Shown: positions 1,024 to 22,469, numbered from the stretch's first letter. The stretch is DNA of 64,000 nucleotides from an uncultured virus (IMG/VR IMGVR_UViG_3300026521_000636) (IMGVR_UViG_3300026521_000636), one strand, 5' to 3'. Made by a program: numbers and translations. Notes: generated by a model not told the origin, from the letters alone.

Positions 1024-2049
1024 ATGAAATATGAATGTATAATGGATTTTGCATTAACCGATAATAAGGTTGGCGATATAGTAAATATTGAAAAAACGAA
1101 TGCCGGATACTTAGTAAATGATATTGAAATATTAGATTCTGAATCAACATACAAATATTTTAAAAAAAGAAAAATCCCAGGTTTTAACCATGCACCATTT
1201 AGCCATTCAAAAATGGAGACATGGGCTAGTTGTCCTAAAAAATTTGAATTTAATTACATCATTCGTCCACCTAGGGAATCTACACCCAACCCTATTTTAG
1301 AAAAAGGAACTTTATTTCACGCTGTTTTAGAGTTTGATATGGTAGATAAACTTGATGATTTTGATATTCCTGATAATTTTGAGGCTCTGTCTCGTGATGA
1401 TTGTGGAAAAATTATTACTCAAGCATTAGAATTTTCAGAAAATTCAGAAATTTACCAATGGATTAAAAATCTAAAAGGTAAAAAAGTACCAGAACAAGAA
1501 ATGTTCCTTGGACCAAATCTTGAACCTGTAGAATGTTTAGAAGATTCTTTAATACGAGGCTTTATAGACTTAATAATTTGGGATGATGAAACTGGTTCGT
1601 GTTATATATTTGATTGGAAAACAGGCGGCAAATCAAAAGAGGCTCTAAAAAAGTGGCCTAAATCAAAAGACCAATTAGAATTATATGCCATTTGGGCTCA
1701 TGAAGTTTATGGTGCTAGTTATATAGAAACTGCGTTTGTTTATGTAGAACATAATCATATGGCTAAATATACATTTGAATCTAAAGATATTCCTATACTC
1801 AAAAAAAAGTTTTTAAATAAAATAAATAATATTGAAAAAGATAAAACTTTTAATAAATCTATATCACAACTTTGTGCATGGTGCGATTTTAAAGAATTAT
1901 GCTTAGGTATTCCAGCAGATAAAAATCCAAGAGAAATAACTAAGGATGAAATATTTTCCGCAGCTAAAGGTACACCTAAAAAAAATAAATCAAATTCTAA
2001 AAATACTGCTTTCTTAAATAAAATTAGAAAAGGTCGAAATAAAGAATGA
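1024..2049 (+). CDS. PD-(D/E)XK (Cas4/RecB-like) exonuclease
   Basis: FSHSK..W..CP, GTLFH, RGFIDL..FDWKTG, QLELYA, C-terminal CAWCDFKELC. Confidence 0.85.
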   Translation: MKYECIMDFALTDNKVGDIVNIEKTNAGYLVNDIEILDSESTYKYFKKRKIPGFNHAPFSHSKMETWASCPKKFEFNYIIRPPRESTPNPILEKGTLFHAVLEFDMVDKLDDFDIPDNFEALSRDDCGKIITQALEFSENSEIYQWIKNLKGKKVPEQEMFLGPNLEPVECLEDSLIRGFIDLIIWDDETGSCYIFDWKTGGKSKEALKKWPKSKDQLELYAIWAHEVYGASYIETAFVYVEHNHMAKYTFESKDIPILKKKFLNKINNIEKDKTFNKSISQLCAWCDFKELCLGIPADKNPREITKDEIFSAAKGTPKKNKSNSKNTAFLNKIRKGRNKE

Positions 2050-2654
2050 AACTCGAAACATTAATTTCAACAGTTAAAGATAAAATTATATACAAAATGG
2101 ATTTCTATCAATCTATTATTATTATTAATGTTCCAAAGCAAAAAATTTTAAATAAAGGTACTATAATTTTTTTGCTAAATAAACAATCAGGTGTATTATC
2201 TGGAGAATGGTTTAATAATAAAAATAGCAATATAAAATTATTTGGAATTCTAAATAATAAATTTATAAAATCCATATTAAAAAATAAAAAATTAAGATTA
2301 TTAAATAGTATCTTACCTGATGTATTAGTCAATAAAGATTTTATAATAGAATATAAATTTCTTTCACCAGAAGAGAAAAAATTATTGAAAGAGTATATAA
2401 TATCTTCTGAAGAACAAATACACAACAAGTATATGACATTTGATAATAAATTTAATAAAGTCTCTTGGGAACAAAGCATTAAACTATCTTCTAACTATTT
2501 TGTAGAATGGTGTAAAGATAGCTCAAATATACAAGATTGTATTAAAAATGCAATCAACATTGCTAATAAAAATTTAGATATAAATTTAAAACGCAGAGCA
2601 ATTTTAAATAAATGTTTTATAGATATTAGAAAATGGAGAGAAAAAAATGGCTAA
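2046..2654 (+). CDS. hypothetical protein
   Basis: 202-aa ORF overlapping both neighbours in an operon. Confidence 0.7.
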   Translation: MKLETLISTVKDKIIYKMDFYQSIIIINVPKQKILNKGTIIFLLNKQSGVLSGEWFNNKNSNIKLFGILNNKFIKSILKNKKLRLLNSILPDVLVNKDFIIEYKFLSPEEKKLLKEYIISSEEQIHNKYMTFDNKFNKVSWEQSIKLSSNYFVEWCKDSSNIQDCIKNAINIANKNLDINLKRRAILNKCFIDIRKWREKNG

Positions 2655-3195
2655 AAAAAAGAAAAATATACCTATCCATATTACAAAACGTGATTCATCA
2701 ACATTTGTTTTAAATAAGATTTCGTCTAGTATGTTATATCATGTACAACAAAAATTCGCATATTTACCACCAGGTTATAAATTTCAACCTAGATTTAGAC
2801 TTATGGGTATTAAAGGTGTACAAGTTAAGCTAGTACACGCAGATGGTTCATTCCCAATGGGATTATTTTCAGAAGTTGTAGAATATTTAACAGAGGTGCA
2901 AAAAAAGAAAGTTACTATGAGCAGTGAAGTAATGGAACATTTTTTACCACTAACTGATTTTTTTGAAGATGGTATAAAAGATGATATATTCTCAGACTAT
3001 GAATTCGATGGTAATCCTGTAATATTAAGAGATTATCAATTAGGTGCAGTTGAAGCCGCTTTTGAAAATAGAAACGGCTTATTAAATTTATCTACTGGTG
3101 CAGGTAAGTGCTTAGGTGGTGAAACTAAAATACGAGTAAAATTAAGTAGTGAACTAATTAAAAAATATAAAGTTATTATAAAAGGCGAATTATGA
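2647..3195 (+). CDS. N-terminal fragment of a UvsW-like SF2 helicase fused to a short N-intein
   Basis: Q-motif LRDYQ and Walker A STGAGK, immediately followed by CLGGETKIRV (intein block A) and a stop 28 aa later. Confidence 0.8.
   Translation: MAKKKKNIPIHITKRDSSTFVLNKISSSMLYHVQQKFAYLPPGYKFQPRFRLMGIKGVQVKLVHADGSFPMGLFSEVVEYLTEVQKKKVTMSSEVMEHFLPLTDFFEDGIKDDIFSDYEFDGNPVILRDYQLGAVEAAFENRNGLLNLSTGAGKCLGGETKIRVKLSSELIKKYKVIIKGEL
3109..3192 (+). other. split intein N-fragment (28 aa)
   Basis: Cys1 at the P-loop GK|S/T insertion site; CLxGETxI block A pattern. Confidence 0.7.
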
Positions 3196-3482
3196 AATTA
3201 TGGATGAATGGATATGATACGACCATAGATGATTTTCCACAAATCATCTATAAAAATAAAATTTTATCATATGAAGAACAAGCCTTTTTAACTAATAAAA
3301 TTTTTGGCTTATTTCAATTAACACATCGAGATAAATTTAAAGAAATAAATGAAATAAAATTAAATACAAATGAATTACCATTTAAAAAATTATATCAATT
3401 AATTCATTCAGATGATAAATATGAATTTGAAGCTGAATATATGGTATATCTATTAAATTATTTCTCCGTGGAACTAGATTAA
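3192..3482 (+). CDS. hypothetical protein
   Basis: ATGA-coupled 96-aa ORF. Confidence 0.65.
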   Translation: MKLWMNGYDTTIDDFPQIIYKNKILSYEEQAFLTNKIFGLFQLTHRDKFKEINEIKLNTNELPFKKLYQLIHSDDKYEFEAEYMVYLLNYFSVELD

Positions 3483-3685
3483 TGATAACTGAAATTATAA
3501 GATTTAACTGTCATGTATTAAAGGTAAATAAATATAACAAAATAACTCCTGATGAATTGTTATTAGAATATAAAACTCGTAACAACCTTATTTTAGAAAA
3601 TACGGAAGTATATGTTGAAAGCTGTAAATGGGCTGCTGGAAGTACTAGTACTATTATAACAAAAGTGAAAAGGATAGAAAAATGA
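3482..3685 (+). CDS. hypothetical protein
   Basis: TAATG-coupled 67-aa ORF. Confidence 0.6.
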   Translation: MITEIIRFNCHVLKVNKYNKITPDELLLEYKTRNNLILENTEVYVESCKWAAGSTSTIITKVKRIEK

Positions 3686-4131
3686 CTTATGCTCAAAATA
3701 AAAAGGCTAGATTTAATTATGAAATCATAGAAATATTTGAAGCAGGGATTGTACTAACAGGTGGTGAAGTAAAATCTGTAAGAGATAGTACAATTTCTCT
3801 TAAAGAAAGCTATGTTAAAATAAAAAATAATGAATTATTTTTAACTCAAGCTCATGTTTCAGTCCCTACATACATACCATCATATGCAGTATTTGATGAA
3901 GTCCAAGATAGAAAATTGTTAATGCATAAAAGAGAGATTTTAAAACTTAAAAATAAATTGAAAGAACAGGGTTTGACTTTAATTGTATTATCAATTTATC
4001 AACGTGAAGGCACAAAAAAGATAAAAGTACAGTTGGCATTAGCTAGAGGTAAAAAATTATATAATAAAAAACAAACTATCAAAGAACGTGATATTAAACG
4101 AGATATGGAAAGAACATTAAAAAAATTCTAA
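3682..4131 (+). CDS. smpB: SsrA-binding protein SmpB
   Basis: NKKARFNYEI..FEAGIVLTGGEVKSVR, RKLLMHKREI, LARGKKLY.K...IKERD. Confidence 0.97.
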   Translation: MTYAQNKKARFNYEIIEIFEAGIVLTGGEVKSVRDSTISLKESYVKIKNNELFLTQAHVSVPTYIPSYAVFDEVQDRKLLMHKREILKLKNKLKEQGLTLIVLSIYQREGTKKIKVQLALARGKKLYNKKQTIKERDIKRDMERTLKKF

Positions 4132-4135
4132 TAGG

Positions 4136-4143
4136 TATAAATA
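4136..4143 (+). promoter_or_regulatory. T4-like late promoter TATAAATA (representative copy)
   Basis: Exact TATAAATA 12-30 nt upstream of genes also at 19019(+), 28289(+), 12962(-), 25168(-), 29543(-), 30211(-). Confidence 0.65.
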
Positions 4144-4171
4144 ATTATAAAATAATCTTAGGAGCAATAAA

Positions 4172-4465
4172 ATGGCAAGAAAGAAAAAGATTCAAGAAGA
4201 AGTAGAAGTACCAGTTGTTGAAGTAACTGATGAAGAGATTCAAGAAGAAGTAGAAGTAGAAGTAGAAGTACCAGTTGTTGAAGTAACTGATGAAGAGATT
4301 CAAGAAGAAGTAACTGATGATTTTGATAATATTGCAATTACTGATTATGCTATGGTATCAAATGAATTAGCAAAAAAAATACTTGAGAAAAAAGGTAAAA
4401 AAGTATTATTTGAAGAGCCAGAAGACGTTCAATCTAGCTTTCATATGAAACCATTAAAAAAATAA
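4172..4465 (+). CDS. acidic low-complexity protein with internal duplication
   Basis: AGGAG RBS, late promoter, EVEVPVVEVTDEEIQEE repeated. Confidence 0.75.
   Translation: MARKKKIQEEVEVPVVEVTDEEIQEEVEVEVEVPVVEVTDEEIQEEVTDDFDNIAITDYAMVSNELAKKILEKKGKKVLFEEPEDVQSSFHMKPLKK
4201..4312 (+). repeat. intragenic direct repeat, 52 nt identical at 60-nt period
   Basis: 4201-4252 is identical to 4261-4312. Confidence 0.9.
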
Positions 4466-6239: not shown

Positions 6240-7493
6240 ATGGCTATTTTACAGCTCCATTCTGATGATCCAAATTTTGGATACATTATCAAAAAAAACC
6301 CAAATTCATCTATGCAAATAAGAAGTATACGTAAAGGTACTGCTTTTACATGGTATTCTCATAATGGTACCGACTTTAATATTTATTTTAAAGATGCTGA
6401 TAATGATGTATCGTTTGGATCGCAAGAATTCGATTATCTAAATATTTCTAAATATAATTCACCGATGTTTATTATCAATGCAATAAGTGAGTTTTTTTCA
6501 AGTACTGTTAGAGAAGAATCAGAATTAGATATAAAAAGTTCAAAATATTTTTATATTAACTTACTTGAAATCAAAAGAATAAAACAATTAATGGATTTTA
6601 AGAAATATTTCCCTGATTTTGAAATTGAAATTACCGAACAAGTTGGGAAAAATTATACTATTAAAGTAATAACTGAAAATAGTTGGTTTATGTTATTAAA
6701 TTATATTAATCTTATGATGATTTTTATTGCATTATCAAGTAACGACTACGTACATTTAGATAGTTCAAATATTGAAAAATATCTAAATGCTATGAATCGA
6801 TTGGATGCACCATTTTTTATACGTTATTTAGTAAGTAGAAATCTTATTAAAAGTAAAAACCAATTTAAAAAATATAAACAATTACTTGAAAAATCAAAAA
6901 GATATAATATCAATATGGCATATGGTAATACGGCTATGCAACGGAAAGACAAAATAGAACGTTTATTATCATTTGATAAATCGATTCTTGATATTGGGTG
7001 TGGAGAAGGTTTTTATGCTATAGATTTTTCTAAAAAAATAGAAAAATATTCTTATAATGCCATTGACATTAATCCTAATCTATTAGAGTCGATCAAGATA
7101 AAAGCTTCAAAAAAAGAAATTACAAATATTAATCTCTTTAATAGTCTAGAAGATTTTATAAAGATTTACAATGATGAGTTAGTAGATATAATACTAACTG
7201 AAGTTATTGAACACATGCCAAAAGATGAATCAAAAAGATTAATAGAGACAGTATTGATGTCTATTAATTTTAATACATTCATTATTACCGTACCAAATAA
7301 AGACTTTAATATTTTTTATGAATTAGGTGATGAAATGAGACATGATGATCATGACTGGGAACCTACATTTGATGAATTTAAAAATTTTATAGCTAATTTT
7401 AATAATGATGGTTTATCTTTTGAATTTATAGAAATAGGTGATACTATCGATGGTATCTCTACAAGTATCGGTTGTATAATTAAAAAGGTATAA
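6240..7493 (+). CDS. hen1: Hen1 RNA 3'-terminal 2'-O-methyltransferase
   Basis: N-terminal Hen1-L-like start (FGYIIKKNP); SAM motif ILDIGCGEG, EVIEH, VPNKDFN, RHDDHDWE. Confidence 0.9.
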   Translation: MAILQLHSDDPNFGYIIKKNPNSSMQIRSIRKGTAFTWYSHNGTDFNIYFKDADNDVSFGSQEFDYLNISKYNSPMFIINAISEFFSSTVREESELDIKSSKYFYINLLEIKRIKQLMDFKKYFPDFEIEITEQVGKNYTIKVITENSWFMLLNYINLMMIFIALSSNDYVHLDSSNIEKYLNAMNRLDAPFFIRYLVSRNLIKSKNQFKKYKQLLEKSKRYNINMAYGNTAMQRKDKIERLLSFDKSILDIGCGEGFYAIDFSKKIEKYSYNAIDINPNLLESIKIKASKKEITNINLFNSLEDFIKIYNDELVDIILTEVIEHMPKDESKRLIETVLMSINFNTFIITVPNKDFNIFYELGDEMRHDDHDWEPTFDEFKNFIANFNNDGLSFEFIEIGDTIDGISTSIGCIIKKV

Positions 7494-21941: not shown

Positions 21942-22109
21942 ATGAAATACGGTTTTAGTTTATTTGAATTAATTATTGTAGTTGTAATATTGGGAATTCT
22001 AGCAGCAGTTGCTATTCCTAGATTATCAAATTCTTCATCAAATAATGATAAAATTTCATACAAAAAAATAATTTTTACTAATGGTGATGGTGGATCCGCC
22101 GAGAATTGA
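21942..22109 (+). CDS. 55-aa type IV prepilin-like peptide (not in ORF track)
   Basis: MKYG|FSLFELIIVVVILGILAAVAIPRL class III signal with Glu+5; GAGG RBS; 3' end overlaps the tmRNA 3' end on the opposite strand. Confidence 0.7.
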   Translation: MKYGFSLFELIIVVVILGILAAVAIPRLSNSSSNNDKISYKKIIFTNGDGGSAEN

Positions 22110-22469
22110 ACTCGGGTCTGCCACTACTTCCATTTAAATCTCATTTACAAGTTTAGTTTGATTTTTAATACTTTAATACTTAGATAACCAAACAAATCGG
22201 TATTAAAGGCACTTGATATAATTTTCGTCTAAAGGTATCAAGTTTAACTTTAGCTTATCTATTTTTTATTATACACTCTGTATTTATTAGTAAATAGACA
22301 ACTAATAAACTGAGTGATTCCGGGCTCCCAGAGGGAGGATTAAGCAGCTACTCTCGCAGTCTGTGGAATATAAAGTTTTGTGTTTGCATTTAAGCTTTTT
22401 TGATGATTAAGTCATCACTCTACTTGCAATTTAAATTTCTTATAGCAACATCGATCCCAATTCGGACCC
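22088..22469 (-). ncRNA. ssrA: tmRNA (382 nt), tag ANTKLYIPQTARVAA
   Basis: 5' GGGUCCG pairs with CGGAUCC-ACCA 3' including G3-U70; T-arm CCGAG-UUCAAUU-CUCGG; resume context UUAAAU-GCA; tag ORF 22387-22340 ends VAA-stop. Confidence 0.95.

Follow-up and report, generated by a model that had tools for sequence, protein, structure and literature searches.

How can a helicase gene that breaks off inside its Walker A motif still give rise to a helicase? This question is raised by an open reading frame (ORF) of an uncultured virus, found in a stretch of 64,000 nucleotides (the window) that corresponds to bases 159350-223349 of a linear virus record of 224,467 bp. The record is a metagenome assembly with a CheckV completeness of 85%, and the G+C content of the window is 28%. 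The first-pass annotation had described the ORF as a helicase gene cut by a very short N-intein, and had proposed that the helicase is assembled by protein trans-splicing from genes that are not adjacent.

The N-terminal half of the helicase gene

The ORF at 2647-3195 (plus strand), as read from the window sequence, encodes 182 residues and is preceded by the ribosome-binding site GGAG. Residues 149-154 are the Walker A sequence STGAGK, which is followed by 28 residues beginning CLGGETKIRV and then by the stop codon. The UvsW_N domain (PF21241) was matched above the Pfam cut-off at residues 21-85 (E 1.3e-7), the start of the Pfam ResIII domain was matched at residues 127-156 (profile positions 4-38), and the PHROG matches of the ORF are DNA helicase families. 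The ORF represents the beginning of a UvsW-type SF2 helicase, and the reading frame together with the two Pfam matches confirmed the annotated interruption 28 residues past STGAGK.

Three parts of this gene can be distinguished. The N-extein (residues 1-154; 2647-3108, plus strand) comprises the UvsW N-terminal domain and the first part of helicase lobe 1 and ends at the Walker A lysine, as delimited by Pfam, PHROG and an alignment with the UvsW protein of phage RaK2. The intein N-fragment (IntN) begins with a core of 12 residues (C155-L166; 3109-3144, plus strand), which family conservation, the predicted complex and the model of the C-fragment identify as the catalytic Cys1 and the first intein beta-strand. 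The remaining 16 residues (S167-L182; 3145-3192, plus strand) form the IntN tail, a basic amphipathic helix at the break point according to its conservation and the predicted complex.

The next gene, a 96-aa ORF at 3192-3482 (plus strand), starts within an ATGA overlap with the IntN stop, in agreement with the clean coupling that had been annotated; it contains no helicase part, and neither Pfam nor PHROG assigns it to a family. The rest of the helicase, sought behind an HN-[S/T/C] junction, is absent from the window, as had been noted: a six-frame scan for H-[NQD]-[STC] in open frames of at least 60 aa gave nothing helicase-like.

Contigs from four public runs, belonging to three studies, are identical to the window over positions 2000-4200 with zero differences. 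Two pieces bridge both the junction and the stop, namely record 27 of run X4 (2723-3318) and record 19 of run X3 (2940-3221). Runs X1-X3 are possibly the source of the same DNA; X4 is not so marked. The assembly break or frameshift at about 3190 that the annotation had considered was thus not found, as the four runs agree there. Runs X1 and X3, which hold DNA of this interval, are labelled hydrothermal vent or epibiont metagenomes.

The partner gene and the extein joint

When the whole record was searched with ResIII, a second match was found at C1:145714-146043 on the minus strand. It spans profile positions 37-163, exactly the part of the profile that is missing from the window ORF. This match, the sequence motifs and Pfam define a partner ORF of 469 aa (G000:C1:145054-146463, minus strand), which consists of the intein C-fragment (IntC) and the C-extein and is preceded by the ribosome-binding site AGGA. 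The partner gene lies outside the window, ending 12,887 bp before window base 1. The two helicase-half genes are encoded on opposite strands, with 15,532 bp between them. A distant ORF with Hint blocks B, F and G, an HN-[S/T/C] end and DExH motifs II-VI had been predicted, with the alternative that no such ORF exists elsewhere in the genome; the partner corresponds to the prediction.

Residues 1-140 of the partner are an intein C-fragment with blocks B, F and G that ends in HHN. Block B is represented by T71-D72-N73-H74 (TxxH), block F by D120 and H128, and block G by H139-N140, which is followed directly by T141, the Walker A threonine. The C-extein of 329 aa carries helicase motifs Ia-VI, including the motif II sequence DEVH. 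Both ResIII and Helicase_C scored above the Pfam cut-offs on the partner, and its match with T4 UvsW (2oca) covers residues 144-471 (E 9.4e-16). A first-pass Helicase_C screen of the record had given no candidate, yet hmmscan finds the domain in the 469-aa ORF, and the screen must be regarded as lossy. The intein profiles remained below threshold on the partner (Intein_splicing of Pfam, 31.2 bits against a cut-off of 35.8; intein_Cterm of NCBIfam, 12.7 bits against 15.6), a shortfall to be expected of a divergent family and of a fragment without block A.

The position of the joint can be read from the contiguous UvsW of RaK2 (511 aa). The N-extein aligns to its residues 14-164, with K154 on K164, and T141 of the partner aligns with T165, such that neither a gap nor an overlap is left between the two exteins. 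The spliced protein would therefore be seamless, with 483 aa and an intact P-loop. Taken together, the two halves possess the UvsW_N domain and the SF2 motifs I-VI of a UvsW-type SF2 helicase. The only two places in the record that were matched by tblastn with two contiguous UvsW proteins are the two halves, and the record therefore contains no intact UvsW copy. Both halves were seen on one contig in this record only; P0004 and P0007 belong to a relative that is 88-96% identical, for which we infer the same.

Conservation of the splicing residues

Cys1 is present in all 72 N-fragments of the family, L2 in 71 and T6 in 68. On the other side of the break, H74 and N140 are invariant in the 94- and 97-member sets of C-fragments, and at least 90% of the members of both sets retain D120, H138 and H139. 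The block B threonine is lost in the relatives P0005 and P0006. In a listing of 100 N-terminal C-fragments, HN precedes T or S at the junction in nearly every case. The present pair has the residues that mark a class 1 intein (Cys1, the block B TxxH, the block F Asp, His-Asn and the +1 nucleophile T141) in addition to the HINT fold. It also has the arrangement of a natural split, with two ORFs of which one carries IntN at its C-terminus and the other IntC at its N-terminus, and with exteins that abut in unsplit homologues.

The break site in the predicted structures

An AlphaFold2 model of IntC, built on an alignment of 97 family members, has a HINT fold (pLDDT 95.1, pTM 0.86), and its top matches in the PDB, obtained with Foldseek and VIA-align, are all inteins with Z values of 12-16. 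The matches include the Pho RadA mini-intein (Z 16.2, rmsd 2.0, 138 aligned), TvoVMA (Z 16.0, rmsd 2.4, 141 aligned), VidaL (Z 15.1, rmsd 2.0, 122 aligned, 24% identity) and NpuDnaE (Z 15.0, rmsd 2.0, 122 aligned), where matches within one Z unit were counted as tied. The 28-aa IntN gave no match when compared with the PDB.

Residue 1 of the IntC model falls on residue 11 of NpuDnaE, residue 14 of Pho RadA and residue 15 of TvoVMA, and the first helix of the model (residues 8-19) is the canonical first intein helix. In the predicted complex of the two proteins, IntN residues 158-165 run antiparallel to IntC residues 3-8 and also touch residues 35-37, while the region of C155 contacts IntC residues 73-75 and 138-141, which include H74 and H138-T141. 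From the start position of IntC, the presence of the first helix on IntC and the pairing of the strands, it follows that the break would lie in the loop of the first hairpin. A break at this position has been named S1 and assigned to VidaL and PolB16 (PMC13014065). As modelled, the present break is at the S1 site, as in these two inteins, and differs from both the canonical site and S2. Contiguous members of the family have a variable linker of 8-25 aa at this same loop, and the fragment lengths of 28 aa and 140 aa show the short IntN and long IntC of an S1 split. An S2 split, in which the IntN tail would be the canonical first helix, was rejected since IntC bears that helix itself and starts at canonical positions 11-15.

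The predicted complex had an ipSAE of 0.70 (0.65, 0.72 and 0.70 in the separate runs) compared with 0.00 for the best control. The runs share at least 60% of their contacts, and the pLDDT of the partner is at least 53. The ipSAE mark is reached by 116 of 157 solved complexes and by 2 of 215 mismatched pairs, a calibration that applies only roughly here because custom alignments were used for the complex, and a pass may reflect likeness to solved inteins. The two fragments are predicted to associate.

The IntN tail helix

The N-intein had been annotated as a unit of 28 aa. Its shortness was borne out, but only the first 12 residues represent the first strand of the intein, and the other 16 are an inserted, conserved helix. 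This tail was found in 66 of the 72 N-fragments, and the K-Y pair at IntN positions 19-20 is kept in 65 of these 66. In the predicted complex, the conserved tail positions 170, 171, 173, 174, 177, 178 and 180 touch residues 13-18 of the IntC helix.

The two surfaces differ in charge. The net charge of IntN is +4, versus -8 for the first 40 residues of IntC. Across the family, IntN has a mean charge of +2.7, with a positive tail in 60 of 70 cases, and the first 40 residues of IntC range from -6 to -11 in seven UvsW-type C-fragments. Such opposite charges would fit an electrostatic capture of one fragment by the other.

Relatives of the two halves

The relatives of the N-half form 71 protein clusters with 43-96% identity and lengths of 124-218 aa, and all 71 have the junction of Gly-Lys with Cys, with a stop shortly after it. 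If the 28-aa fragment of the window is counted, IntN is 14-16 aa long in 6 members, 22-32 aa in 64 and 63 aa in one. The last of these, P0026 (218 aa), has its 63-aa tail after the junction probably through a read-through or frameshift into the next gene. Stop codons or frameshifts were not seen in the close relatives, and a protein search for unsplit, longer close relatives of the N-half, in which none of 685 candidates scored, found no such relative, an outcome that is to be read as weak evidence.

Scans of viral contigs with each half singly found nothing, and a scan of the viral contigs with the N-half alignment returned 42 loci, all of which are distant, contiguous helicases without an intein. 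The metagenome scan gave 80 loci, none long enough to show both halves; three of them (L049-L051) are family members, all split, 76 are intein-less, and L115 has a canonical contiguous intein.

A word-limited search with the IntC region returned three relatives besides the query, all of the same architecture. One of them, P0005, has approximately 50% identity over the intein region versus 77% over the whole protein. When HMMER was run exhaustively with IntC, 134 representatives were retrieved at E <=0.001, of which 100 are N-terminal C-fragments, with a match that begins within the first 40 residues. Of the 34 others, 11 carry an upstream P-loop-Cys junction and are contiguous inteins, and 23 are either distant inteins or ambiguous. 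The 94-member set used above consists of 93 of these 100 C-fragments and the present IntC; left out were the junction-less fragments P0137, P0140 and P0146, the truncated P0156, and three sequences with odd ends (P0173, P0180 and P0209).

The C-exteins of the family belong to Clp-type AAA_2 (17), AAA_5 (12), AAA (8), SF2 helicases (7), RecA (6), PhoH (3), DnaB (3), clamp loaders and others. Judged by its sequences, the IntC family is a single lineage of inteins that sit in the P-loops of many ATPases and are mostly atypically split. The preference of inteins for P-loops as such is already known (PMC4760082). By profile, the gp41-1, DnaX, DnaE, VidaL and Cat inteins are all at roughly the same distance from the family. 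A tree of IntC (97 rows, 139 columns) has little resolution, 8 of its 94 branches being starred. Host labels change 36 times on this tree versus 57 times in shuffles (minimum 51), a pattern that hints at movement of the intein between ATPase families.

In P0006 and P0081 (379 aa each), the IntC-helicase ORF breaks again at motif II, after D-E, and runs into the N-part of another intein, which occupies residues 239-315 of P0006 (Intein_splicing, E 6.2e-10). The UvsW protein there would therefore come from at least three pieces.

Neighbouring genes and other split loci

The operon of the N-half consists of a PD-(D/E)XK exonuclease, an ORF of about 200 aa, the N-half, the coupled ORF of about 100 aa, a small ORF and SmpB. 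This arrangement is kept in the metagenome loci L050 and L051, with the ORF of about 200 aa absent from L050 and with L051 ending just past the N-half. The conservation of the operon around the N-half therefore suggests that the split with an unlinked partner is old in the clade. A homologue of the 96-aa downstream ORF is in the same place in L050 (47% identity, E 7e-30), and an Atlas search with this ORF gave a best score of 0.88, a weak lead.

Several other genes of the record deserve mention in their own right. SmpB (PF01668, E 1.4e-48; 3682-4131, plus strand), in the tightly coupled operon of the N-half, and a tmRNA gene at 22088-22469 (minus strand; ARAGORN tag peptide of 15 residues, Rfam RF00023 with 115.5 bits) make up a complete trans-translation pair in this phage. 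The ORF at 4172-4465 (plus strand) encodes a very acidic protein of 97 aa with an internal Glu/Val-rich repeat, and the opposite strand of this interval holds short repeat-filled ORFs. At 6240-7493 (plus strand) is a Hen1-like RNA 3'-end methyltransferase (Hen1_N, E 1.5e-64, with a methyltransferase domain), which suggests a function in RNA repair.

Elsewhere in the record, the ORF at G000:C1:149130-150551 (plus strand; L130:231-1649) is the N-part of a DnaB/gp41-like helicase and matches positions 2-180 of the 255 in DnaB_C. Its end, about 97 aa long, is a canonical intein N-fragment (TIGR01445, 29 bits, above the cut-off). The partner of this split gene was not found in the 85%-complete record. 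At G000:C1:141926-144437 (L129), a 474-aa PIN-PhoH gene is accompanied by a SegE-like GIY-YIG ORF (a weak match, E 1e-4) and by a 97-aa duplicate of the PhoH C-terminus (PhoH positions 114-203), an arrangement that looks like the scar of a homing-endonuclease insertion.

Proposed mechanism and alternative explanations

We consider it highly probable that a functional class 1 split intein of the S1 type trans-splices the only UvsW helicase of this phage from two unlinked genes. The assembly from non-adjacent genes that the first-pass annotation had put forward is supported by the partner gene, by the abutting exteins and by the conserved splicing residues. In the pathway proposed here, the first gene would provide the 154-aa N-extein, ending in the Walker A Gly-Lys, as a fusion with the 28-aa IntN, and the second gene would provide the 140-aa IntC as a fusion with the 329-aa remainder of the helicase, which starts with the Walker A Thr. 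The 12-residue IntN strand is predicted to complete the first beta-hairpin of the HINT fold of IntC, and the basic IntN tail helix is predicted to pack on the acidic first helix of IntC. Splicing would then begin with a thioester at Cys1, after which the N-extein would pass to Thr+1, Asn140 would cyclise with the assistance of His139, and an O-to-N shift would complete the reaction. The end product would be a contiguous helicase of 483 aa and about 56 kDa, each half alone presumably being unable to bind ATP.

The intein fragments could instead dock the two halves non-covalently, the P-loop being completed across an unligated interface. The predicted complex is compatible with such a clasp, as it shows association and no chemistry. 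However, all class 1 splicing residues are present (Cys1, TxxH, the block F Asp, His-Asn and Thr+1), and a mere clasp would not keep catalytic residues in the manner seen here, where C1 is found in 72 of 72 N-fragments and H74 and N140 are invariant in 97 C-fragments. With the intein left in place, moreover, 168 residues would part the Walker A Lys from the Thr. Docking without ligation is for these reasons improbable.

The intactness of both ORFs, each with its own ribosome-binding site, speaks against a decaying gene, that is, a helicase broken by an intein or rearrangement event of which one or both halves are non-functional. In 71 clusters, with identities as low as 43%, the N-half persists together with its junction, the C-extein is better conserved than the intein in the comparison with P0005, and no other UvsW gene is present in the record as a substitute. 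The location of the halves at unlinked sites on opposite strands is what decay might leave behind, as is the DnaB-like gene that ends in an intein N-fragment with no partner found in the record, but we regard this explanation as very unlikely. The chance that an assembly break, a chimera or a frameshift at about 3190 created a false stop is close to nil. No positive sign of such an artefact was found in this metagenome assembly of 85% completeness; the four runs of three studies show one and the same sequence from the junction through the stop, the reading frame ends at this point in 71 independent clusters as well, and the partner's own Met sits exactly where the fold requires it.

If trans-splicing takes place as proposed, the separation into two transcription units might itself be put to use. 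UvsW activity would need both units, which would make the split intein a post-translational AND gate, and the basic helix would serve as a capture handle for the unlinked products. T4 UvsW switches replication from origins to recombination. The surroundings of the C-half contain 30 promoter-like sites versus 28.1 expected and 0 terminators, which is the level of chance, and the window shows no enrichment of the T4 late-promoter word TATAAATA, with 13 occurrences versus 24.9 expected. A regulatory use of the split is a speculative idea, and we would give it a small share of probability.

Significance

To our knowledge, few naturally atypically split inteins have been characterised. Those that have been named include AceL-TerL, GOS-TerL, VidaL and PolB16 (PMC11766414, PMC13014065, PMC10189870). 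Protein engineers want such inteins because the short N-fragment can be synthesised as a peptide, and the usefulness for protein engineering that had been claimed for the present IntN is in line with this interest. The locus adds an example of the S1 type with Cys1 and Thr+1 to a known kind of intein. The family also provides a natural series of 72 N-fragments, of 14-32 residues plus one of 63, which parts the 12-residue catalytic strand from an optional conserved helix that is a candidate affinity handle. A conserved helix that extends the 12-residue core, and that is missing from natural short forms, is particular to the present intein, as is the UvsW host gene with halves that are unlinked in the phage genome.

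Two wider implications may be drawn. A large phage could depend on the trans-splicing of the products of two unlinked genes for its sole UvsW helicase. In addition, one intein lineage appears to occupy the P-loops of many ATPase families, and to do so mostly in split form.

Comparison with known systems

We take the host gene of VidaL to be a 'T4-like helicase'; if that host is UvsW, the present family may simply be the wider kin of VidaL. VidaL (PDB 6vgv/6vgw) is a natural S1 split with an IntN of 16 aa (PMC13014065). Like the present intein, it has Cys1, a HINT fold and a split right after the first strand or strands, and among the intein matches listed it has the highest identity (24%) to the IntC model. 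Six of the 72 N-fragments of the present family are, at 14-16 aa, similar in length to the IntN of VidaL. Unlike VidaL, the IntN described here reaches 28 aa through the appended, conserved 16-aa helix. At the level of sequence, IntC alone gave no match with VidaL at E values up to 10, and the family profile matched it with an E of 3.1e-6, no better than the gp41-1, DnaX, DnaE and Cat inteins; a search of the PDB with P0080 added nothing on VidaL.

PolB16 OarG (PDB 8cpn) is also a natural S1 split, with fragments of 15 and 168 aa (PMC10189870), and it was the best PDB sequence match of IntC, albeit a weak one (E 0.11). PolB16 is inserted in a PolB polymerase, has Ser1 and Ser+1, and its block B His is dispensable; in contrast, the present intein has Cys1, Thr+1, an invariant block B His and a P-loop insertion site. 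The AceL-TerL, GOS-TerL and Cat-TerL inteins are natural atypical splits from phage-like metagenome sequences, with an IntN of 25-37 aa (PMC11766414, PMC13014065). Their break is at S2, behind the first helix, and their host is the large subunit of terminase, whereas the break described here is assigned to S1. The known atypical split inteins as a group have an IntN of 15-37 aa (PMC13014065).

Genes for DNA metabolism that are split within an intein and rejoined by trans-splicing have been described in phages as 'fractured genes' (Dassa et al. 2009, PMC2677866). In fractured genes the halves are adjacent, a free-standing homing endonuclease gene lies between them and the split site is canonical. 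Unlike these, the halves described here lie 15.5 kb apart on opposite strands, and searches of the ORFs flanking the two halves with Pfam and PHROG found no endonuclease families. The word 'UvsW' occurs 0 times in PMC2677866, and a literature search by titles and abstracts found no description of a split UvsW intein. The split DnaE of cyanobacteria also has its halves at separate loci and joins them in trans (PMC2677866). In a canonical split, IntN has about 100-120 aa and IntC about 35-50 aa (PMC13014065). Split DnaE combines this canonical break with a cellular polymerase, whereas an atypical break and a phage helicase are combined here. T4 UvsW (2oca) and the present exteins have in common the architecture of UvsW_N, SF2 lobes 1 and 2 and the DExH motif. 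The UvsW genes of T4 and of jumbo phages such as RaK2 are, however, contiguous and without an intein, whereas the UvsW gene described here is split.
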